DNA from: a virus
Lineage: Duplodnaviria; Heunggongvirae; Uroviricota; Caudoviricetes
DNA: 44,853 nucleotides
Direction: 5' to 3' (one strand)
IMG/VR virus record: IMGVR_UViG_3300045988_031537
The notes under the pieces were generated by a model that was not told where the DNA came from, made no database searches, and was given only the letters and a program-made list of their open reading frames with translations. The translations under genes and the position numbers were made by a program. Numbering within the stretch: position 1 is the first letter of the stretch; every line of letters starts with the position of its first letter. Shown here piece after piece: positions 1,575-44,386 of the stretch.

Positions 1575-1991
1575 ATGAAACTTTCTGATTTTTATTACGA
1601 AGCTGAGGCAGAAAAAGGCGCCCGTATGCCGATACCACTGAAAGACGGCACCGATTCAGGGGAATGGCTGAACGTTGTTTCACCGGAGGCAGACGTTGCC
1701 GTTAAAGCTATGAGGGCGTTTACACTTGCGTACCGCGCGGCATTAGGTAAATTGAAACCGCTTCGTGATAAATGCGAGGAACTGAAAGATTTCTCGGAAT
1801 ACAACATCAAGATGGAAGACGCCGCAACGGACCTTAACCGCCAGTTAGCGCTTGAACTGGTTAACGGTTGGAGTCTCGACGATGAATTTAATAAAGAGAA
1901 CCTGAATACTCTTTTCTCACAATATAAACGACTCGCTGAACACGTTGTTGTTTTCCACAATGAACAGCTTCACCAATTGCAGGAAAAGTAG
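1575..1991 (+). CDS. Tail assembly chaperone (lambda G-like), inferred from position
   Basis: 138-aa ORF immediately upstream of the tape measure gene; ends GAA AAG TAG. Confidence 0.5.
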   Translation: MKLSDFYYEAEAEKGARMPIPLKDGTDSGEWLNVVSPEADVAVKAMRAFTLAYRAALGKLKPLRDKCEELKDFSEYNIKMEDAATDLNRQLALELVNGWSLDDEFNKENLNTLFSQYKRLAEHVVVFHNEQLHQLQEK

Positions 1992-1996
1992 ACGCG

Positions 1997-2356
1997 TTGC
2001 TCCAGTTTGCCCGTTGGAACTTCATAACCCGCCACAAACGGCGGGAGTTTGACAGTATCGCCGACGGGCATAAAGCCGCGCTAATTGCTATGGGGGTTAT
2101 GCAAGACGCGCCGGAAGCAACGCAGGACACAGGGCCGGAATGCCCCCCTGAGCTATTAACCACCTTCGAGAAGTACAGGGAAATCAAATTCACCCGCCGA
2201 GTGGACGATGATGGCATCAAGATGTACCCGCGCGAACAGTTAAGATGGTCGGATTTAGTGGCATACAGCACCGTTTCAGGCCAGAATATATGCATGTTTG
2301 AATCTGACATCATCATGAGCTTAGACGCTATTTTCGAGGGTAGAAACGATGGCTGA
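1997..2356 (+). CDS. Probable -1 frameshift extension of the tail chaperone (lambda G-T-like)
   Basis: ORF in the -1 frame relative to 1575-1991, open from 1964, no ATG start with RBS, ends overlapping the tape measure start. Start coordinate is the track's TTG, not a claimed initiation site. Confidence 0.4.
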   Translation: MLQFARWNFITRHKRREFDSIADGHKAALIAMGVMQDAPEATQDTGPECPPELLTTFEKYREIKFTRRVDDDGIKMYPREQLRWSDLVAYSTVSGQNICMFESDIIMSLDAIFEGRNDG

Positions 2357-4688
2357 TGTAGCTAGTTTAGTTGTAAAGGTATCAGAGCAAGGCGCGAAAG
2401 CTACATCGGACCGTCTTGATAATCTCTCCAAGTCGGCAAAAGTAGCGGGGGCAGCCGTAGCTGGACTCGCTTCAATTGTCGCCGCGACAGCGTACAAGGC
2501 CGCACAGGAACTGGTAGACTCCCAACGGCAACTGGACAAGATGTCCGCCAGCCTGAAAACACTAACCGGAAGCACGCAGGGGGCAAGACAGGCGTTAAGC
2601 ATCCTGCAAGACTTCGCGCGCGACACTCCGTATGGCCTTGAACAGGCGGTAGAGGGATTCCGTAAACTGGTGGCTCTCGGCCTTACCCCCTCAGAAGAAG
2701 CGTTGCGCTCCTATGGCAACACTGCCGCTGCTATGGGTAAAGACCTTAATCAGATGATTGAGGCCGTTGCGGACGCCAGTACATTTGAATTTGAGCGCCT
2801 TAAAGAATTCGGCATCAAGGCCAAGCAAAACAAAGACGATGTTGAATTTACATTCCAGGGCACCACTACGGTAGTTAAGAAGAGCGCTGCCGACATCGAG
2901 CAATACCTGCTCAACATTGGTAACGTAAACTTCGCGGGGGCTATGGCGGACCAGGCCAACACACTTAACGGCGCCATCGCCAGTGCCAGCGACTCATGGT
3001 CGCAGTTAAAAATGACACTGGCTACCAGCCTTGATGTTGGCGCTCTTGCGGAGCCTATCCGGTACATCGATGATTTAATCCAGGAACTTAACGCACAGGT
3101 TGCATCCGGTGAACTTGCCGCGGAGATGCGTATGTGGGGTGACATCGCGTCGGAAGTAGGAAGCGCGATAGAGATGTCGTTCGACGCGGCATTTGGTTTT
3201 GTAGGTGACGCGATAAATGGACTGAATGAACTTTGGGATTTTAGCAGTAAAAGTATCACCGACAGCGGCGAACAAACGGCGACAACCATCGCGGAATCAG
3301 CTGCCGATGCGCTCGATTTCATCGCAGAAGAATTTACCGCGATGGAGCGCTTCTTTGAAGATATGGTTAAAGGGGCACAGGACGCTGGCCGGTTGGTGAA
3401 AGCTGCCTTCACACCAGGGGAATCTGTAGACGTAGCAAAAAACATTAACTTCCAGCTAGGGATGGCACTGGATACTCAGCGCGATGTTGCGGACCTGACC
3501 CGTAAAAGTTTCCGCGAACAGGTGGAGGCTCAGCAAAATATTGTCGCGCTTAAACGCGCAGCGTATGACATCGACAAAGAAGCCGCTAAGGAAGAAGGGC
3601 TTAGTAAATTTAAGGTAACTGGTACTGGTGGCGGGCCCGAAGATGATAATGCTGGTGCAAAAGCCTCCAAGAAAGCGGCGGACGCGTTCGAGCGCCAGAA
3701 GAAAGCCGCTGAGGATTTCTACTACCAGTCGATTCATCTCAATGATGACGTATTCCAGAAAATAGAAGCCAACCAGGAACAGCAGCTAACCAAGCTACAG
3801 GAGTTCTATGGTAATCAGCTTCTTAGCGACCAGCAGTACGAAAACGCTAAAACTCAGATTATGCTGGAGGCTGACACCGCACGTCAGGAAGAACTCGCCA
3901 AGCGGGAGAAAGAACGGCAGGAGAAGAACCAGAAAGGCGAGGACTTCATGGCTCAGATTATGGGCCAGAATGCTGCCGAGCTTGAGCTTCTGGAGATTCA
4001 GGAACAACAAAAACTGGACGTTGCTGATAGATACCGTGAACAGAATCTGATTAACGAGGAGCAGTACCAGGCAGCGGTTAACGCGATAAACGACCAGTAC
4101 GCATTGAAACGTGCCAACGCTACCGGTAACGCTTTTGGCATGATGGCGGACAACATTAAGTCATCGCTAGGCGAGGCGTCCTCCGCGTATAAAGCATTCG
4201 CTATCGCTCAGGCCACAATAGCCACATACACATCCGCCATCGAGGCTTATAAATCTGCGTCCGCGATTCCTATTGTTGGTTGGGTGCTTGGTCCTGTGGC
4301 CGCGGCAGCAGCAGTAGCAGCAGGTCTGGCTAACATCGGCAAGATTCGTTCGGCCCGTGAACAGGGTGGTCAGTTATCTGCGGGGCAGGCTTCCACCATC
4401 GCCGAACGCGGTAAACCAGAAGTTATCATGCCTGCTGGTGCATCGCGCGTACGAACTGCGCAGCAGATGAAAGAAATTATGGGGCAAAATGGGTCTTCTT
4501 CTGGCCCATCTAATGTTACCATTGTAAATAACACATCGAGTCAGATTGGCAACGTATCCACTGAGCAAGATGATGAAGGCCGTTTGCGTATCATCATCGA
4601 GGAGCAAGTAGCTGCGTCTTTGCAGAACAGCAACAGTAAGATTAGCAAGGCCCGCAAGGCCACAAGAAACGCGCCTGGTTTCAAGTAA
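2349..4688 (+). CDS. Tail tape measure protein
   Basis: 779 aa, Ala/Gln-rich and predicted helical, C-terminal hydrophobic segment, located between chaperone and distal tail genes. Confidence 0.85.
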   Translation: MADVASLVVKVSEQGAKATSDRLDNLSKSAKVAGAAVAGLASIVAATAYKAAQELVDSQRQLDKMSASLKTLTGSTQGARQALSILQDFARDTPYGLEQAVEGFRKLVALGLTPSEEALRSYGNTAAAMGKDLNQMIEAVADASTFEFERLKEFGIKAKQNKDDVEFTFQGTTTVVKKSAADIEQYLLNIGNVNFAGAMADQANTLNGAIASASDSWSQLKMTLATSLDVGALAEPIRYIDDLIQELNAQVASGELAAEMRMWGDIASEVGSAIEMSFDAAFGFVGDAINGLNELWDFSSKSITDSGEQTATTIAESAADALDFIAEEFTAMERFFEDMVKGAQDAGRLVKAAFTPGESVDVAKNINFQLGMALDTQRDVADLTRKSFREQVEAQQNIVALKRAAYDIDKEAAKEEGLSKFKVTGTGGGPEDDNAGAKASKKAADAFERQKKAAEDFYYQSIHLNDDVFQKIEANQEQQLTKLQEFYGNQLLSDQQYENAKTQIMLEADTARQEELAKREKERQEKNQKGEDFMAQIMGQNAAELELLEIQEQQKLDVADRYREQNLINEEQYQAAVNAINDQYALKRANATGNAFGMMADNIKSSLGEASSAYKAFAIAQATIATYTSAIEAYKSASAIPIVGWVLGPVAAAAAVAAGLANIGKIRSAREQGGQLSAGQASTIAERGKPEVIMPAGASRVRTAQQMKEIMGQNGSSSGPSNVTIVNNTSSQIGNVSTEQDDEGRLRIIIEEQVAASLQNSNSKISKARKATRNAPGFK

Positions 4689-4691
4689 TAA

Positions 4692-4710
4692 TATGGCCCT
4701 TTCGGGCCAT
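4692..4710. terminator. Hairpin between convergent genes (candidate bidirectional terminator)
   Basis: ATGGCCC-TTTCG-GGCCAT inverted repeat just after the tape measure stop. Confidence 0.4.
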
Positions 4711-4713
4711 AAC

Positions 4714-5460
4714 TTACTCGCTGCGTACTTTTCCGTTACATAGCTCCGTGAACTCAGCTATTATCTCGCTGTTGGCCACCATCCACTCACTGGCCCCATC
4801 AAAGTTGCTTAGCTCCGCCGATACGTGTGTGCGGTGAAAGTATCGCTCTAACATACGGCAACGAGCACCATTAGCGTCTTGGTATACACTAAGCACATGG
4901 AACTCAAACGGAGTGGAGCGCTCCAGTTGAGCAAGTCGTTGTTTTAACTTGTTAGTAATACCTATTTTAAGGTATTTACCACATGCAGAAAGAAGTCCGT
5001 AAATGTACCCTGGTTTGTTAGAGTCGTAGCCGTGTCTGGCGCACGACGGACAACCATGCCTGTGCACTAAAATATTATTAACCCCTGTAGCAAACACCCC
5101 GTGGTCATTACATGCGCGTATCGCTTTGGAGATTTTGTTTAGGTACGCGCCTCCTTCAAAACCCACGAACGTATATCGAACATCCGCGGATTTTATTTGC
5201 TCAATAACGGCATCTGTATTCTTGCGGTAGGCAGCCGCCGCGGCTTCTCGACTGCATTTCATACACCCGTGTCCTCCAGAGATGCTACGGGCTATAGCTG
5301 AAAATTCACCGTGGGACGGGCAAATAAGTCTAATCTTGCTAGTCGAGTCAATGTACTCACTACCGTCATAACTTGCGGATATTGTGTACTTCCCGCCGTG
5401 TTTCTTTAAATCTAACTCGACCATTTTCTTCCGTTCTTCCCAACCAATTTTAACGCTCAT
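4714..5460 (-). CDS. Putative homing endonuclease with T5orf172/GIY-YIG-like C-terminal domain and two N-terminal Cys/His repeats
   Basis: C-terminal PGYIYGLL...GKYLKIGITNKLKQRLAQL; N-terminal repeats CPSHGEF...CMKC and CNDHGVF...CPSC; AAGGAGGAG RBS before the start. Antisense to the surrounding tail genes. Confidence 0.55.
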   Translation of the reverse strand: MSVKIGWEERKKMVELDLKKHGGKYTISASYDGSEYIDSTSKIRLICPSHGEFSAIARSISGGHGCMKCSREAAAAAYRKNTDAVIEQIKSADVRYTFVGFEGGAYLNKISKAIRACNDHGVFATGVNNILVHRHGCPSCARHGYDSNKPGYIYGLLSACGKYLKIGITNKLKQRLAQLERSTPFEFHVLSVYQDANGARCRMLERYFHRTHVSAELSNFDGASEWMVANSEIIAEFTELCNGKVRSE

Positions 5461-13852: not shown

Positions 13853-14140
13853 CTAACTATAATAGTTTGCTATTAGGTCGTCAACCTGTTTAAACGAACC
13901 AACGACAAAAACATTTGCACCGCGTTTACGCATCCGCTCATGCTCACGTAACTGGTGCGGGTCAGGCTTCGTGTTTTCGTCTTTCTTAACCTCGACGAAC
14001 CAGACGATGCCGCCGGGGAGAATTACCAGCAGGTCAGGGGCGCCGGAGCGCCCCTCGTACGAAAGTTTACGAACGAGGCCCCCCAGGGCCTCGAATCGCT
14101 CTTTTGCGTATTTCTGCACACGCCCCTCAGGCGTACTCAT
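13853..14140 (-). CDS. VRR-NUC domain nuclease
   Basis: GAPDLLVILPGG...VEVKK matches the VRR-NUC PD-(D/E)XK core. Confidence 0.7.
   Translation of the reverse strand: MSTPEGRVQKYAKERFEALGGLVRKLSYEGRSGAPDLLVILPGGIVWFVEVKKDENTKPDPHQLREHERMRKRGANVFVVGSFKQVDDLIANYYS
13856..13884 (-). promoter_or_regulatory. Sigma70-like promoter, TTGACG-N17-TATAGT
   Basis: Reverse complement reads TTGACG, 17-bp spacer, TATAGT; shares the CTAACTATAATAGT block with the 20647 promoter. Confidence 0.4.
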
Positions 14141-14225
14141 CTACGCACCCCTCACGTTTCGTATGCTCAATCCCGCAGCGCGGACAGATTCGGCAGTCTT
14201 CTTCGTAGAACCAGTAAATTTTCAT
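14127..14225 (-). CDS. Small zinc-ribbon-like protein (32 aa)
   Basis: MKIYWFYEEDCRICPRCGIEHTKREGCVDEYA; start and stop overlap neighbouring genes. Below the track cut-off. Confidence 0.3.
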   Translation of the reverse strand: MKIYWFYEEDCRICPRCGIEHTKREGCVDEYA

Positions 14226-14353
14226 TCCGGCACCCACAGATAAATTGCGATGAACATACCCAATACGGCTACCATCATGCCGTATTGCCCCTCGTGACAG
14301 TAGACACCGGCGGCGAATCCCGCCAGTACCGCGATAATCAGTTTACTTAGCAT
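14222..14353 (-). CDS. Small hydrophobic peptide (43 aa)
   Basis: MLSKLIIAVLAGFAAGVYCHEGQYGMMVAVLGMFIAIYLWVPE; ATG overlaps the 3' end of the polymerase gene. Confidence 0.3.
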   Translation of the reverse strand: MLSKLIIAVLAGFAAGVYCHEGQYGMMVAVLGMFIAIYLWVPE

Positions 14354-20972: not shown

Positions 20973-23213
20973 CTACTCCAAATCCTCCTCTGTCACCACC
21001 AGCATTTCATTCGGTTCGTATATTGTCTTCGGTCTTAATCTGTCGCCCATCTTTTCCGGTATCCTGTATGTGCCCGGTATAACTTCACCGTTAACATCAC
21101 ATCCAAGCATCAACTCACCGTCTTTCAGCATCTTCTCGAGATGGTGGTTGGTGATAGCGTGGTCGCCAGAGTTCGCCACTATCTGCCGTTGGGTAAAACC
21201 GCGTCCGGTGTCGTCGGCCTGCTGCAGGTCTTCCAGCGCGGCGAGTATTGATTCCTTACGCCCTTCATCCTTCCCGCGTTTTACAGCATTCTTTACGTTT
21301 TCTTTACCTTCTTTCGTCAGCCCTTCTTCCCGCTCTTTCTCCTCGTCAGTTTTGAACGGCTCGAAGCCCCACGGCATCAGCACAAGTGCCTTATGTGGTT
21401 CTGGCAGGTCGAGGTTTACGATTGTGCCGTATTCCTCTGTGCTACCCAGGAACTCAACAGCACGGTACTCTTTCGGCGGTGGCGCTTCGCGGAACTGTAC
21501 CGACTCCAGCACCATGCCAACCGTTTTCTGTTGGGGCCCGTGCTTAAATTTAGAGTGGTATACGTTTATCTGACGGTCGGTCGCGCGTTCAATTGTCAGT
21601 TCCACGTCGACGCCAGCATACAGCGCACCACTGCCGCGGGCTTTCTTTCCACCTTTCGGCGTATGGTGGACAACGCCTACTGCGGCTTTAGTCACGTCAC
21701 GTACTTCTTTCAGGATGGCAATGACTTTACCCATGCCGATTGCCGTCGATGAACTGTTCTCGTCGAACTTATCAATCGTCAAAGCCAGGGTCTGGTTTAG
21801 GGTGTCGAAGGCAACCATGCCGATGGGTTCGTCACCCGCAGTTTCACGCATCAACTTAATAAGGCTTTTCAGTTTTCCGACTTCGCCCATGTCGATGACA
21901 TGTACATAATCTTTACCTTCCTCACCATATTTAGCCGCTAGTGCGTCAATACGTGTGCGTGTAGCCGCGCCACCCTCACCGTCGATATAGAAGTGATGGC
22001 AACGCTGGGTGTCCGCCCCGGCGAACCGGTATCCGGCGGCGCTCAGGTACATCATCCCCAGCGTATAGAATGATTTGTACGTGCCGGATTCCCCGACAAT
22101 ATCCCAGATGCAATCTGACGGCATATACCCTTCTACGACGAAATCAGCCTTTACCGGTTCCGGTAGCTCGTCCTCCTCGGGGTCCTCGTCGTCTTCCAGG
22201 TCGTCGAGGCTGCATGAAACAGATTCACGTGCGCCCCAGCCGATAGCCTCAGCGACTTCACTGAACGGGAGACCAGTCGCATCACACGCATATTTCCACA
22301 CCTCTTTCGGCGACATGCCTTCGGTTGCCGTAATGTCAGTGTCGTGGATCATGGTTACGTTCGGCGCTTCGTAGCCCTCGCGCGGGAAGCACAGCAGGAA
22401 GTCGTCCGGGCGCGGCGTAGGGTCGCTGTAATTTTCTGCATGTTCCGGCGTAGCTGGCATCTTAAGGCCGCGGGGCGTCATAACACCGCCGTACTCAAAC
22501 GCCAGCGCCTCAAACGCATCAGTAAACGCGGTACGCAGTTCTTCTGGTATCTGGTAGTCAGATGCGCTGCTCACCTCGTAATCCGGGATGCCTTCCAGTA
22601 ACTCTTCCGGGTCAATCAGGTCGTTTCGGCGCGACCAGATAACGGTAGAGCCAACCGGCGGCAGGTACATAGGCTGCGACAGAGTGAAACCGCTGCGGTC
22701 CGCGCCCATGCCTTTGAAGAAGTGTTCCAGCAATCCATGGCGAACACGGATGATGTCTCCACCTTCAACCGGGCGGCCCAGCGGCATGACGACGCGAAAG
22801 CGTGGTGACTCATCGGTATGGGATGCCGTGGTGTAGAGGCACATAGCCAGGCGGCTGCGCTTAACCAGGCGCACAGCTTCCTGATACTCTTCCGGTGTTG
22901 CACCGTCGAAGTCCAGATAAGCGAGCGACGATTTGCTTACAGACGCGTCACAGCGATAGAAGAAGCCTTTACGCGCCCGCTTAAAGTCTCCTGTTTCCGG
23001 GTCTTTTACGGTGCTGTGTGTAGAGTCGCACGCAGCGGTGATATACCCGGGCGCGGTCTTAGGGTTAATCCCATCACGAACGGCATCGAGTGGCTGGATT
23101 AGCTCTTTCAGGTCGTCCAGTGTTGCCGTGTGGGTGGTTCTGACGTTTATATCCTTTTTCTCTGCCGGCGCGTTGCGACGAGACCACGAGTAGGATAAAA
23201 TTACATCGGACAT
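20973..23213 (-). CDS. Primase-polymerase / RecA-like helicase replication protein
   Basis: N-terminal prim-pol-like region (LDFDG) and C-terminal P-loop GESGTYKS. Confidence 0.7.
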   Translation of the reverse strand: MSDVILSYSWSRRNAPAEKKDINVRTTHTATLDDLKELIQPLDAVRDGINPKTAPGYITAACDSTHSTVKDPETGDFKRARKGFFYRCDASVSKSSLAYLDFDGATPEEYQEAVRLVKRSRLAMCLYTTASHTDESPRFRVVMPLGRPVEGGDIIRVRHGLLEHFFKGMGADRSGFTLSQPMYLPPVGSTVIWSRRNDLIDPEELLEGIPDYEVSSASDYQIPEELRTAFTDAFEALAFEYGGVMTPRGLKMPATPEHAENYSDPTPRPDDFLLCFPREGYEAPNVTMIHDTDITATEGMSPKEVWKYACDATGLPFSEVAEAIGWGARESVSCSLDDLEDDEDPEEDELPEPVKADFVVEGYMPSDCIWDIVGESGTYKSFYTLGMMYLSAAGYRFAGADTQRCHHFYIDGEGGAATRTRIDALAAKYGEEGKDYVHVIDMGEVGKLKSLIKLMRETAGDEPIGMVAFDTLNQTLALTIDKFDENSSSTAIGMGKVIAILKEVRDVTKAAVGVVHHTPKGGKKARGSGALYAGVDVELTIERATDRQINVYHSKFKHGPQQKTVGMVLESVQFREAPPPKEYRAVEFLGSTEEYGTIVNLDLPEPHKALVLMPWGFEPFKTDEEKEREEGLTKEGKENVKNAVKRGKDEGRKESILAALEDLQQADDTGRGFTQRQIVANSGDHAITNHHLEKMLKDGELMLGCDVNGEVIPGTYRIPEKMGDRLRPKTIYEPNEMLVVTEEDLE

Positions 23214-30325: not shown

Positions 30326-30496
30326 ATGTTCAGTGACATCAACGCAGCAATCGAAGAAGCAATATGGCGGCGCTATAACGGCGAGCAACAGCGGCACTTT
30401 TGCCTCGTGCAACGCGGTAACATGATTGCCGTAGTGCAGGACCGGGATAACAAATATCCGAATGCGATGTGGTCAACGAGGAATTTCTTAGGATGA
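30326..30496 (+). CDS. Small hypothetical protein (56 aa)
   Basis: ATG after GGGGTGA; below the track cut-off. Confidence 0.3.
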   Translation: MFSDINAAIEEAIWRRYNGEQQRHFCLVQRGNMIAVVQDRDNKYPNAMWSTRNFLG

Positions 30497-30729
30497 TTAC
30501 CAGCATTCCTAACCTGATTAAAGAATTCGGCACGATGGCGGAGACATGCCGACAAACTGGCCTCAACGAAATGACGATTGCGAAGTACAGTAAAGACGTG
30601 AACTGCGAGCGCCACGTAATTTATAACAATCGTCTCATGACGCACGTTAAGACAAGCCCGGTGCTATTCACGCGCCGTGGTATCACTAAAACAGAGCAAC
30701 GTATCGCACGAGAGGAGGGTGATGTATGA
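30493..30729 (+). CDS. Small HTH-like protein
   Basis: TMAETCRQTGLNEMTIAKY. Confidence 0.4.
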   Translation: MITSIPNLIKEFGTMAETCRQTGLNEMTIAKYSKDVNCERHVIYNNRLMTHVKTSPVLFTRRGITKTEQRIAREEGDV

Positions 30730-30881
30730 AAAAGTTAACGGTGTACTGGAAGACAGGCGCTACATCAGAACTTGATGTTTTCAACGTAACGCAATGTGAG
30801 AAGTTCTGGTACGCCGAAACATTCAACGGTGAAGTGAGAATCCCGTTAGCACTGGTAGACGGCGGCGATATAACCGAATAG
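30726..30881 (+). CDS. Small hypothetical protein (51 aa)
   Basis: ATGA overlap with the upstream gene. Confidence 0.3.
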   Translation: MKKLTVYWKTGATSELDVFNVTQCEKFWYAETFNGEVRIPLALVDGGDITE

Positions 30882-30890
30882 TCACACCAC

Positions 30891-30916
30891 AAGCCCTCTA
30901 CGGAGGGCTTTTCTGT
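30891..30916 (+). terminator. Rho-independent terminator
   Basis: AAGCCCTC-TACG-GAGGGCTT followed by TTCTGT. Confidence 0.55.
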
Positions 30917-35411: not shown

Positions 35412-35535
35412 AGTATATCTAGTAGCTAGCTTTGGTCGGTGAACTACTAAAAATAGAGAAAGAATATAACCCCATGAAGGTATGCCTATCTCTGGCATCG
35501 ACCAATCTTCATGGGGTTTTCTTATAGGGTTTAAT

Positions 35536-36105
35536 ATGGGAATTGTTTTTGGTGTGGGTATTAACGATGTTTCACCAATAAGTTGCGGAGGGGTGCATAT
35601 AGCGTCCTACGCCGTATGGAAGAACATGTTAAAGAGGTGCTACGACAAGAAATGGCAGCAAAGAAACAGAACTTATATAGGTTGCCGCGTGTCGGACGAT
35701 TGGTTGGTGTTCAGTAATTTCAAGGTCTGGTTTGATGATTTTTATGTACCTGGGTGGCAGATAGATAAGGATTTACTTAACCCGGGAAATAAGGTTTACG
35801 ATGCTTCTAACTGTGTTTTCATCCCTAAATCCCTCAATACTTTCCTAACAGCCCACGACGCTCTTCGAGGCGAACACCCACTCGGCGTACATTTCCATAA
35901 ACAAAAGAAAAGATTCATCGCTCAAGTATCCGTGGATGGCGTATCTGAACAAATAGGCGCTTACGAAACCGCTCAAGAGGCACACGTAGCATGGTTTCAT
36001 AGAAAAATTGAATTAGCATATGAATACAAAGGTCTTTGCGATAGCATAGACCCACGCCTTTTCGAAGGCGTCTTACGTAAGATTAACTCAATGAAAGAGG
36101 TTTAG
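35536..36105 (+). CDS. HNH-AP2-like homing endonuclease, possibly degenerate
   Basis: AP2-like GVHFHKQKKRFIAQVSVDGVSEQIGAYETAQEAHVAW; HNH-like GWQIDKDLLNPGNKVYDASNCVFIPKSLN with Lys where His is expected; preceded by a 12-bp-stem hairpin at 35468-35517. Confidence 0.5.
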   Translation: MGIVFGVGINDVSPISCGGVHIASYAVWKNMLKRCYDKKWQQRNRTYIGCRVSDDWLVFSNFKVWFDDFYVPGWQIDKDLLNPGNKVYDASNCVFIPKSLNTFLTAHDALRGEHPLGVHFHKQKKRFIAQVSVDGVSEQIGAYETAQEAHVAWFHRKIELAYEYKGLCDSIDPRLFEGVLRKINSMKEV

Positions 36106-37493: not shown

Positions 37494-37880
37494 ATGAATC
37501 TTAAAGCAACTGTCGTAGCCGGAGCATGTTTCGTCGTCCTAGCCTACGCACACGGCATCTATCAATACCGCAGCGGCTGGGGTGAAGGCCGTGCTAATCT
37601 CGTTTCGCAGCAACAGCAGAAAGCACAGGCTGAGCTGACGAAGAAAACACAACGGCAGCAGCAGGATGAATCAAAGGCCGCCGCCGCTGACAACGAAGGC
37701 AAGACGAAATCAGAGGTGATTACCCGTGAAGTCGTTAAGTACATTAAAACGCCTGGCCGCAGCGTGTGCACTTTCGACGATGCTCGCGTCCTGCTCAAGT
37801 CCCACGCCGTTGCCAACGCCAATTCCATCCCCGGATACGACGATGATGCAGCCGCCGTGCAAACTGGCACCGCCAAGTAG
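37494..37880 (+). CDS. i-spanin (Rz-like)
   Basis: N-terminal transmembrane segment, Gln-rich coiled coil, embedded o-spanin ORF. Confidence 0.6.
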   Translation: MNLKATVVAGACFVVLAYAHGIYQYRSGWGEGRANLVSQQQQKAQAELTKKTQRQQQDESKAAAADNEGKTKSEVITREVVKYIKTPGRSVCTFDDARVLLKSHAVANANSIPGYDDDAAAVQTGTAK

Positions 37881-42412: not shown

Positions 42413-42804
42413 GTTTCGCGCTTGATGTCTCTAAGTTCGTGGAAAAGGCGAAGAAGAATCCTGAGAAGGTGATGCGTCAGGTGTCTATTAAGCTGTTTTC
42501 CGCTATCATAAAGGCGAGTCCGGTAGATACAGGCCGCTTTCGTATGAACTGGATGGCATCTGGCGGTACTCCTGCTTCCGGGGTTACAGATGCTACGGAT
42601 AAATCAGGAAACACGGCAACCGGAAACGCTACAAGTTTCGTACTGAAAGCCGCAGACTGGCACGAGTTCACGCTGACAAATAATCTGCCGTATGCACAAC
42701 GGCTGGAGTATGGCTGGTCGCAGCAAGCGCCACAAGGATTTGTCCGGGTGAATGTGTCCCGCTTCCAGCAACTCATTAACGAAGAAGCCAACAAGGTGAA
42801 ATGA
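42409..42804 (+). CDS. Putative tail completion protein
   Basis: Synteny, coupled to neighbours. Confidence 0.4.
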   Translation: MSFALDVSKFVEKAKKNPEKVMRQVSIKLFSAIIKASPVDTGRFRMNWMASGGTPASGVTDATDKSGNTATGNATSFVLKAADWHEFTLTNNLPYAQRLEYGWSQQAPQGFVRVNVSRFQQLINEEANKVK

Positions 42805-43217
42805 TGGGCTACTTTGAGGACTTAACCAAAGCATTTGATGCGCCGCTGGTAGCCTTCGGAACAACCAACGGCATCAAGGTCTCGCTTGAAAACATCGACG
42901 CGCCGACGTCAACCGATACGCCGTATCTGGCAAGTTACATGTTACTTGCGGATACAGAACAGGCGGATTTGTTCTTCACAGAACAACGCTCAGGTGTTTA
43001 TCAGGTCGACATTAACTACGCATCGGTGAAAGGTAGCGCGCCAATCAATAAAATGGCAGACTTACTTAACACGGCATTTAAAGCAGGTAAGTCATTTTCA
43101 CGTAACGACATCTGCGCCGAGGTTCAATCGGTAAGCCTGGGGCCGCTGATTGTAGAAAACGGATGGGCCAAACGACCATTGTCAATTAACTTTATTGCAT
43201 TCACCAAGAGGCTGTAA
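42801..43217 (+). CDS. Putative tail terminator protein
   Basis: Immediately upstream of the major tail protein gene. Confidence 0.4.
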   Translation: MMGYFEDLTKAFDAPLVAFGTTNGIKVSLENIDAPTSTDTPYLASYMLLADTEQADLFFTEQRSGVYQVDINYASVKGSAPINKMADLLNTAFKAGKSFSRNDICAEVQSVSLGPLIVENGWAKRPLSINFIAFTKRL

Positions 43218-43219
43218 AT

Positions 43220-44386
43220 ATGGCTACAACTCCTTTTAAGGGCGCGAATACAGCGCAATTCTATGTGGCGGAAGTGACCCCGGGCGTAACACCTGATAAC
43301 CCGGTCTGGTCGCCGTTGCGTAACACGGGTGGCGTTCCTGCCATTACCCGTGACACACTGACCTCCAACGAACTGGATGGCAGTCGTGAAACTACGTCCA
43401 TCCGCACCGGTAACAAACAGGTTAGTGGAGAATACGCCATCGAGCTTAGTTCGAAAAGTCAGGACGACTGGTTGGCTGGTGCCTTAGGCTCTACGTGGCA
43501 ATCCGGTGTTTCTCTGTCCGGGCTGTCTATTACCGTCGCCCCGGCGGGAAAGACGTTCACCCGTGCTGATGGCAGCTTTATTACCGACGGCGTTGAAGTG
43601 GGCGACCTGATTGCGTTTACCGACTTAACAGGTGATAACGCCAAACCGTTTATCGTAACCGAGGTAAGTGCGACTGTTGTCACCGGTGCTGGTATCCAAC
43701 ATACGCTGACCACCGAGACCGCCACTACTGCGGCTAAAACTGGCGATAAGCTGGAAACCGGTAGCCAGTGTAAGACGTTCTCTATTCTCACATGGTACAA
43801 AGGCCAGTGTGGTGGGGCTGACGCGTACACGCTGACCAAAGGCGTGGAAGTTTCTGGCTTCACTATTGAGCAGGCCGTTAACGCTATGGTAACTGGCAGC
43901 TTCCCGTTCATCGGTCGCAGTCAGGAGATTCTCGCCACGCGGCCGTCTGGTTCTGATTTCTCTAAGGTGACTTTCACTGATGAGCCGTTCTCTTCGGTTG
44001 ACGTTTCTGTGTTCGACGGTTCCACGCCGTTGCGTTGCGATAGTCTGACCATTACCAACGATAACAGCGCGTCAGCACAGTTCGAACTCGGCAATACTAA
44101 TGTGGCGTTTGTGGAGCGTAGCCGCGCGGCTAACACCTTCTCCATCTCCGGCAAGCTGTACGACATGGCTATGATTCAGAAGTTTATCAACGAACAGCAG
44201 GTAGAGATTAACTCTATTCTGGCGGGGGTGAACGGGGCTATGTCTTTCAGTTTGAAACGTGCCGAGTTGACCGCAGTTACGCCAGAGATTGGCGGGCCTG
44301 AGTCAATCACTCAGAGCATAGAAGGACAGTCCACAGGCAACCAGTACCAGTCGTCTATTGTTATCCAGCGTATCACCTACGCATAA
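43220..44386 (+). CDS. Major tail protein
   Basis: 388 aa, Thr/Ser/Gly-rich, last gene of the neck series, followed by a strong terminator. Confidence 0.65.
   Translation: MATTPFKGANTAQFYVAEVTPGVTPDNPVWSPLRNTGGVPAITRDTLTSNELDGSRETTSIRTGNKQVSGEYAIELSSKSQDDWLAGALGSTWQSGVSLSGLSITVAPAGKTFTRADGSFITDGVEVGDLIAFTDLTGDNAKPFIVTEVSATVVTGAGIQHTLTTETATTAAKTGDKLETGSQCKTFSILTWYKGQCGGADAYTLTKGVEVSGFTIEQAVNAMVTGSFPFIGRSQEILATRPSGSDFSKVTFTDEPFSSVDVSVFDGSTPLRCDSLTITNDNSASAQFELGNTNVAFVERSRAANTFSISGKLYDMAMIQKFINEQQVEINSILAGVNGAMSFSLKRAELTAVTPEIGGPESITQSIEGQSTGNQYQSSIVIQRITYA

Follow-up and report, generated by a model that had tools for sequence, protein, structure and literature searches.

In phage lambda, two overlapping open reading frames (ORFs), G and T, lie directly upstream of the tape measure gene; T is in the -1 frame, and ribosomes that shift by -1 as they approach the end of G make a minor fusion protein. 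This chaperone frameshift was reportedly worked out by Levin, Hendrix and Casjens in 1993 and by Xu, Hendrix and Duda in 2004, 2013 and 2014, and the T part is said, in the work of Xu et al. of 2013 and 2014, to function solely when fused to G. The stop of lambda G lies several codons beyond the shift site, and the lambda shift is reported not to depend on a downstream structure. Tail assembly of this type needs the short product as well as the fused one. The G part of the fusion sits on the tape measure and the T part recruits the tail tube protein, at about 30:1 (PMC5009743). We analyzed a gene pair of the same layout in the record IMGVR_UViG_3300045988_031537 from IMG/VR, a Kagunavirus (Guernseyvirinae) coliphage genome; the whole stretch of 44,853 nucleotides (nt) is called the window here. 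A G-like tail assembly chaperone ORF is followed in the -1 frame by a T-like extension, and our sequence comparison makes it very probable that the two are joined by a programmed -1 ribosomal frameshift of the lambda G/GT type. The frameshift itself is already a known prediction in sister phages. The new part is the anatomy of its signal, an obligatory A_AAG-stop junction and a long-range helix with switching partners, which appears to be undescribed.

Two further kinds of signal are close to this one. Those of the insertion sequences IS3 and IS1222, reportedly studied by Sekine in 1994, Licznar in 2003, Mejlhede in 2004 and Sharma in 2014, have an A_AAG core after a variable NNA codon and a structure about 5 nt downstream, and low-level shifting is expected from them. 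"Shifty stop" frameshifting, said to date from Weiss et al. in 1987, and the B. subtilis cdd site A_CGA_AAG have a stop immediately or closely 3′ of the site. In E. coli, A_AAG is the most shift-prone tetramer; it shifts near background alone and at 5.6% with the IS3 pseudoknot placed 5 nt downstream (PMC4066793). NNA_AAG sites are used by IS1222 and present in B. subtilis cdd (PMC5009743).

Over positions 1400–2500, the window shares 99.5% identity with phage fBC-Eco01 and 99.4% with Schulenburg. The chaperone ORF begins at an ATG (1575) with a good AGGA 7 nt upstream and ends CAG (1980) GAA (1983) AAG (1986) TAG (1989–1991), as the original prediction had read it. The -1 frame is open from 1964 to a TGA at 2354–2356, and that end lies, again as first read, over the start of the tape measure gene: with the ATG at 2349, the overlap is 8 nt (ATGGCTGA). 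The extension is conserved from its first residue on (V-x-A-L). A slip on the Lys codon would give a fusion of 138 + 122 = 260 amino acids (aa), which corrects the earlier estimate of about 258.

Both halves of the predicted fusion belong to tail chaperone families. The upstream ORF matched PF08748 (Phage_TAC_4) at 34.6 bits, above the gathering cutoff of 21.1, and the downstream ORF matched PF23812 (Phage_TAC_18) at 65.2 bits (E = 6e-18), above the cutoff of 27. One PHROG profile of 259 positions, phrog_15027 (“tail assembly chaperone”), spans the pair, with the first ORF at 1–138 and the second at 136–259. The tape measure gene that comes next also gave a sub-threshold match to PF20155 TMP_3 (35.8 bits against a curated cutoff of 41). 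These matches agree with the lambda-like pair of chaperone and -1 extension that had been proposed. At E ≤ 0.1, no Pfam family beyond PF08748 and PF23812 matched, including the families of lambda gpG and gpT, which we take to be Phage_TAC_2 and Phage_tail_T. Solved structures searched by sequence gave nothing below E = 0.1, and the NCBIfam search gave no match. When 185,579 bacterial species genomes were scanned, one match only was obtained, in a Taishania assembly, and the chaperone pair is therefore not a prophage family. The matching region (NZ_JACVEL010000023.1, 2106–4871) is on a 13-kb Taishania pollutisoli scaffold whose extension is Jerseyvirus-like and 86% identical to that of the window; this scaffold is probably phage contamination or carry-over and not a prophage.

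To compare the junction across homologues, we scanned IMG/VR twice and obtained 27 and 68 loci. The second set gave 59 distinct junctions, with extension identity down to 37%. The two-ORF arrangement was repeated in all 59. In all 59 the 0-frame stop was directly 3′ of the Lys codon (TAG in 54, TAA in 5, TGA in none), and the codon before Lys ended in A, though it encodes E (44), A (8), K (4), S, V or G. Where it encodes Glu it was GAA in 44/44 and never GAG, whereas a Glu column eight codons upstream employs both codons. The Lys codon was AAG in 55/59; AAA was found in the other four, exclusively within A_AAA_AAA sites (A7 runs). The base before GAA was G in 44/44 (CAG, CTG, GCG or TTG; in fFiEco02 also TCG), and therefore the usual site is G_GAA_AAG, where re-pairing of tRNA-Glu to GGA would need just one G.U pair. 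One locus (L087) carries the lambda heptamer G_GGA_AAG. The second residue of the extension is variable, yet its codon always begins with a purine (R), so that TAR is kept.

The stretch in which a shift can yield the fusion is short, since the upstream opening of the -1 frame varies by locus and in some lies merely 13–16 nt before the G stop. Inside this permitted stretch, A_AAG (or A_AAA) followed by a stop is the only motif common to all homologues, and no other slippery site was found in 1964–1991 of the window. The alignment with chaperone pairs of related phages, which the original prediction had suggested as a check, thus repeats the arrangement and supports its placement of the slip on AAG beside the stop. 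We also looked for a Shine-Dalgarno-like stimulator of the dnaX or IS911 type, 10–14 nt upstream. There was no peak of anti-Shine-Dalgarno affinity at -10 to -17, and the sole peak near the site was a weak GGA inside the shift site itself. In a rough, length-based gene set of the window, in-frame NNA_AAG occurs in 43 of 13,518 codons (0.3%), and the stops of the 66 genes are TGA in 31, TAA in 29 and TAG in 6.

Some observations on the junction stand apart. TAG is scarce in the window phage, yet near-universal at the chaperone end across the family. The ORFs of the window that end in TAG are 13955–14350, 20973–23213, 30373–30645, 30686–30892, 35482–36105 and 37494–37880, and the last of these ends GCC AAG TAG, with no A before AAG. 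A GC-rich contig (L030, IMGVR_UViG_2899916314_000002, 1342–1991) encodes a distant Phage_TAC_4-like chaperone of 103 aa that shares the motif WSLDDEFNKEN. It ends with a canonical A_AAA_AAC, a TGA at once and then a hairpin of about -70 kcal/mol, and therefore the layout with the shift on the last codon and the stop in the spacer reaches beyond Guernseyvirinae. In a Jerseyvirus-like contig (L024, IMGVR_UViG_638275545_000001, 1046–1461) the chaperone ORF is cut short after 37 codons even though its full 138 residues can be aligned by tblastn (85% identity); the old assembly probably contains an indel or a sequencing error here.

The comparison of codons pointed to a further element downstream. 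We numbered positions from the G of AAG (window 1988) as 0. Synonymous sites at +6..+11 are frozen: the Ala codon at residue 3 is GCG in 54/58 and the Leu codon at residue 4 is YTG in 59/59, whereas the third positions of the comparison columns Ala31, Leu32 and Ala34 show 1.3–1.7 bits. This freezing is due to the 5′ arm of a long-range helix. In the window, 1994–2003 pairs with 2113–2114 and 2116–2123 and closes a three-way domain of ∼130 nt, with the 5′ edge of the helix at +6, 5 nt after A_AAG. The minimum free energy (MFE) structure of 1983–2135 contains this helix (-58.6 kcal/mol, z = -3.0), and 1 of 200 shuffles folded as well under nested folding.

We then scanned the arm +4..+17 of each sequence against its downstream sequence, with control arms for comparison. 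A partner of 10–14 bp was found in every sequence, and the mean duplex energy was -18.3 kcal/mol compared with -11.2 kcal/mol for control arms. The partner was always at one of three places, about +69, about +125–130 or about +198–203. The sequences form three classes (Table 1), all of which fold with a helix beginning at +6. Pairs were counted on gapless alignments in coding register that had not been fitted to the structure. Class A (17 distinct sequences) had 90% of cells paired, compared with 21–48% for slid partners, and 4 pairs had changed on both sides; +9:+132, for example, is C-G in 9 sequences and U-A in 8. Class B had 96.8% of cells paired against 17–52% for slid partners, with three compensatory pairs. 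The 5′ edge fixed at +6 with three different 3′ partners seems to us a stronger argument for the helix than these pair counts.

In one class B phage (L085, IMGVR_UViG_3300033074_000010), +6..+18 pairs with +197..+209. Residues 5–7 have changed there from Y-E-F to L-K-Y together with a change from K-F-I-Q-R to K-F-Q-Q-R, and 13 perfect base pairs are kept; judged from these sequences, RNA pairing visibly shapes the protein at two sites. Searches by other means were less informative. No Rfam family matched, and the only match, to a snoRNA, was by chance (E = 0.42). A pooled RNAalifold analysis of all junctions, reaching at most -60..+120, gave no consensus structure. This result is misleading, because the 3′ partners are clade-specific and lie at or beyond +126; it took the partner scan to bring the helix out. 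The inner hairpin of the enclosed domain was considered as a stimulator and rejected; it begins 19 nt after the site, other clades do not keep its pairing, and compensatory changes are absent.

Table 1. Coordinates of the chaperone gene pair, its predicted frameshift signal and the helix classes (window positions; values with a plus sign count from window 1988 as 0).
Feature	Position	Strand	Evidence or members	Sequence or pairing
G-like tail assembly chaperone ORF, 0-frame product, 138 aa	1575..1991	+	PF08748, phrog_15027, AGGA before ATG	
-1-frame TGA; a -1 shift must occur 3′ of it to yield the fusion	1961..1963	+	sequence	
Shift site; core tetramer A_AAG at 1985–1988, on last sense codon of G	1982..1988	+	junction comparison	G_GAA_AAG
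5-nt spacer, including the G stop TAG (1989–1991)	1989..1993	+		UAGAC
T-like extension, -1 frame after the slip, 122 codons + TGA	1988..2356	+	PF23812, phrog_15027	
Predicted G-T fusion span, 260 aa	1575..2356	+		…LQEK|VDALLQF…
Tape measure protein gene; start overlaps end of extension	2349..4688	+	phrog_1538, E = 9e-199	
Helix 5′ arm, contains TTG 1997–1999	1994..2003	+	MFE fold, synonymous freezing, pair counts	GCGUUGCUCC
Helix 3′ arm, A2115 bulged	2113..2123	+	MFE fold, class A pair counts	GG-a-AGCAACGC
Inner hairpin of enclosed domain, Kagunavirus-1/Jerseyvirus clade-specific	2008..2070	+	z = -3.6	
Class A, 3′ partner	+126..+135		window, Jerseyvirus, three further clades	
Class A, Kagunavirus-1				GCGUUGCU-CC / GG-a-AGCAACGC
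Class A, Jerseyvirus				GCGUUGUUUC / GAAACAACGC
Class A, other clades				GCGCUGU / ACAGCGC
Class B, 3′ partner (codons K-F-[IV]-Q-R)	+197..+209		fFiEco02, phiEap-2, many metagenomic phages	GCGCUGUAUGAAU / AUUCAUACAGCGC
Class B, one lineage				GCGCUGUUGAAAU / AUUUCAACAGCGC
Class C, hairpin closing	about +82		A7-run clade	

On balance we lean towards a signal of three parts: A_AAG on the last sense codon, a stop in the 5-nt spacer, and a helix fixed at +6 whose 3′ partner has moved among about +69, +130 and +203, a movement that also altered amino acids (Thr/Ala at residue 45, Ile/Val in K-F-[IV]-Q-R). In the sequence of events that we propose, most ribosomes on the chaperone gene would terminate at TAG 1989, giving the 138-aa chaperone. 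A small share of them, by analogy alone probably a few per cent, would slip back one base on the shift site. The tRNA-Lys would re-pair from AAG to AAA and, in most members of the family, tRNA-Glu could likewise move from GAA to GGA at the cost of one G.U pair. The shifted ribosomes would read GUA GAC GCG UUG and onwards to the 260-aa fusion, whose T-like C-terminal domain would end over the tape measure start. The putative stimulator is the helix 1994–2003/2113–2123, and its 5′ edge, 5 nt past the shift site, would place it at the mRNA entrance while the P site holds GAA and the A site AAG. Our preferred reading is that the structure stimulates tRNA-Lys to slip while AAG is being decoded or immediately afterwards, and that re-pairing of tRNA-Glu is tolerated. 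The G stop in the spacer may add to the effect, as the A site would be slow to fill; a P-site slip while UAG waits for release factor 1 (RF1) is the main variant and would give the same protein. By analogy with lambda, the G part of the fusion would sit on the tape measure and the T part would recruit the tail tube protein, at a ratio near 30:1.

Could the extension be expressed without a shift? It may be read as a separate gene that starts at TTG 1997, either directly, from the AGGA at 1981–1984, or by termination-reinitiation after TAG. Many GenBank records are annotated in this way, among them Schulenburg (with a ribosome binding site feature), XY1 and FSL SP-101, and the TTG is present in the clade of the window, which accounts for 16/59 junctions. 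The original prediction had stated that the extension has neither an ATG nor a ribosome binding site. It was right on the ATG, but the TTG does have a weak AGGA 12 nt upstream, marked by some annotators as a ribosome binding site; the distance at the G start is 7 nt. This TTG is the fourth codon of the extension (Leu) and is replaced by CTG in 43/59 junctions. In most of the distant homologues examined, CTG lineages among them, the first ATG, GTG or TTG is an ATG at codon 35, which sits within the conserved block KFDSIA…H.AAL.AMG (…FDSI..H.AL.AMGV…); one homologue, L025, has a GTG at codon 13. Because the TTG is mostly CTG and distant relatives have no start before the conserved block, separate initiation is not tenable as the family-wide route of expression of the extension domain. 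Independent initiation in homologues had been named as a finding that would speak against the frameshift, and the homologues gave the opposite outcome. The residues V, x and A ahead of the Leu codon are moreover conserved in the -1 frame, the TTG is buried in the 5′ arm of a stable helix, and in the lambda precedent described above the T part functions only as a G fusion. We therefore consider a separate gene very improbable. Transcriptional slippage on the A run of the shift site (GGAAAAG), giving a minority mRNA one base short that encodes the fusion, is a still weaker candidate and can practically be set aside: the run is just 4 A here and 3 A in the variants GCA_AAG, TCA_AAG and GTA_AAG, whereas productive slippage by bacterial RNA polymerase requires longer homopolymers.

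Granted a ribosomal shift, the rivals concern the stop and the helix. The original prediction had proposed that one tRNA slips next to the stop. Its placement of the site is borne out, but it missed the conserved helix, and because this helix begins 5 nt after the site a structure-stimulated slip is no less likely than a pure “shifty stop”. In the latter, peptidyl-tRNA-Lys would slip after translocation, on AAG in the P site with UAG awaiting RF1; tRNA-Lys alone would re-pair to AAA and Val-tRNA would read GUA, giving the same product, and the helix would be unneeded or have another role. That the stop adjoins the site in every junction, even at canonical heptamers, is what this model would expect, as is the keeping of TAR beside a widely varying residue 2. 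TAG, which is read by RF1 only, is used in 54/59 junctions though it is the rarest stop in the window, and the codon before AAG varies (GAA, GCA, UCA, GUA), so that tandem re-pairing is not conserved. Re-pairing of the P-site tRNA is known in ribosomes stalled at stops (PMC6815119; “shifty stops” in PMC5009743). However, a ribosome with AAG in its P site would already need to have opened the first base pairs of the helix, and an edge at +6 agrees better with AAG in the A site. GAA is preceded by G in 44/44 even though the codons ending in this G specify four different amino acids, which suggests that P-site re-pairing is under selection, and selection on the length of the G ORF would preserve the stop in any case. 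We regard the pure stop-dependent slip as possible but doubtful. A lesser chance, in our view an improbable one, is that the helix is real but serves mRNA stability or processing, control of tape measure translation, or occlusion of a spurious TTG, and that A_AAG and the stop alone cause the slip. The tetramer and stop are indeed conserved by themselves, and no Rfam family describes the helix. Frameshift stimulators are typically compact hairpins or pseudoknots, among which enclosed domains of 75–200 nt are unusual. A 5′ edge that stays at +6 in three classes while the 3′ partners are found at distances of about 60, 120 and 190 nt is nevertheless hard to explain unless the distance to the shift site matters, and A_AAG without a stimulator remains near background in E. 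coli (PMC4066793).

Several points weigh against the stimulated frameshift that we favour. G_GAA_AAG is not a canonical X_XXY_YYZ heptamer, as had been remarked from the outset, and the site is non-canonical in most junctions; the genome announcement of the sister phage Shashou reports “no canonical slippery sequence” (PMC6776780). No experimental demonstration of the shift was found in the papers that could be searched. The TTG with its AGGA does exist in the Kagunavirus-1/Jerseyvirus clade, and some minor independent initiation may occur in the phage of the window or in its clade. At 5 nt, the spacer falls towards the lower end of the known range, and any part played by the stop is inseparable from purifying selection that simply preserves the length of G. 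Both helix arms are within coding sequence and half of the pairs are invariant. Because the sequences are related, the pair counts and the shuffle test, in which 0/500 shuffles matched the observed percentage paired or covariation score, overstate significance and independence.

Compared with lambda, whose heptamer occurs here in one relative only, the site is G_GAA_AAG or NNA_AAG and not X_XXY_YYZ, the shift is placed on the last sense codon, and a conserved helix lies downstream. The proteins are Phage_TAC_4 and Phage_TAC_18 and not of the lambda families, and an antisense gene block separates the chaperone and tail tube genes. Two marks of IS3-type signals are found instead: A_AAG in the 0 frame (55/59 junctions) and a conserved stable structure starting about 5–7 nt downstream. 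By sequence, the signal thus resembles IS3-type sites of A_AAG plus structure more than the lambda heptamer. It differs from IS3 and IS1222 in that a long-range helix (a nested fold) closing a domain of 75–200 nt takes the place of a compact pseudoknot, the 0-frame stop is in the spacer, and the context is a phage chaperone and not a transposase. The best-known stop-dependent cases, prfB and antizyme, shift by +1, unlike the shift proposed here, and the upstream Shine-Dalgarno stimulator of B. subtilis cdd was not found at this locus.

We also compared our prediction with deposited records. Phages fFiEco03 and fPoEco01 have 98% nucleotide identity to the window and the same genes. The GenBank record of fFiEco03 contains a joined coding sequence (CDS), “putative tail assembly chaperone frameshift product”, and the more distant fFiEco02 has a joined CDS of the same type. 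The fusion that we predicted from fFiEco03 (junction …QEK|VDALL…) is identical to the 260-aa protein QNO11663.1/YP_010748927.1, which is on deposit for both fFiEco03 and fPoEco01. The fusion of the window is one residue off this protein (C for G near the C-terminus) and has no identical entry in the collection. The joined CDSs of fFiEco03, fPoEco01 and fFiEco02 are predictions only, with no signal or stimulator described, and no earlier description of the frameshift signal or the helix was found in the searchable literature, which excluded subscription journals. With tblastn the extension was found in 496 phage records, most of which have two separate genes and call the extension a hypothetical protein. 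In phiEap-2 the annotators had the second gene begin at an internal ATG.

The neighbouring genes were also inspected. A tail tube-like gene (43220–44386, plus strand; phrog_290, labelled “minor tail protein”) is preceded by a tail terminator gene (42801–43217). Between the tail tube-like and chaperone genes is a minus-strand block (35–1534) with a metallophosphoesterase/exonuclease (35–1165) and a superinfection immunity protein (1205–1534), and the operon of chaperone and tape measure therefore needs its own promoter. There is a weak sigma-70-like match at 1416–1444. The tape measure gene is separated from the distal tail genes by an antisense gene for a 248-aa endonuclease-like protein (4714–5460, minus strand; phrog_681, E = 2.5e-48, with a weaker HNH endonuclease match), which looks like an insertion of the homing-endonuclease type.

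The general picture of tail-chaperone frameshifting is well established and is unchanged by these results. The gene pair is present in about 500 records of Guernseyvirinae and related phages, where the extension is mostly listed as a separate hypothetical protein and is sometimes cut to an internal ATG. The comparative evidence justifies a joined CDS at A_AAG in all these records. For a reporter assay, the fragment 1950–2010 suggested in the original prediction omits the 3′ arm of the helix (2113–2123) and would probably under-report shifting; sequence to about 2135 is needed. The family also contains naturally occurring variants of the site (G_GAA_AAG, NNA_AAG, G_GGA_AAG and A_AAA_AAA), each directly followed by a stop; together with the three alternative helix partners, they could separate the contributions of P-site re-pairing, the adjacent stop and the long-range structure. 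If true, termination in the 0 frame at the foot of the helix could belong to the design of the signal. If the helix is the stimulator, these phages would provide a natural case of “partner switching” by a stimulator in a phage chaperone frameshift.

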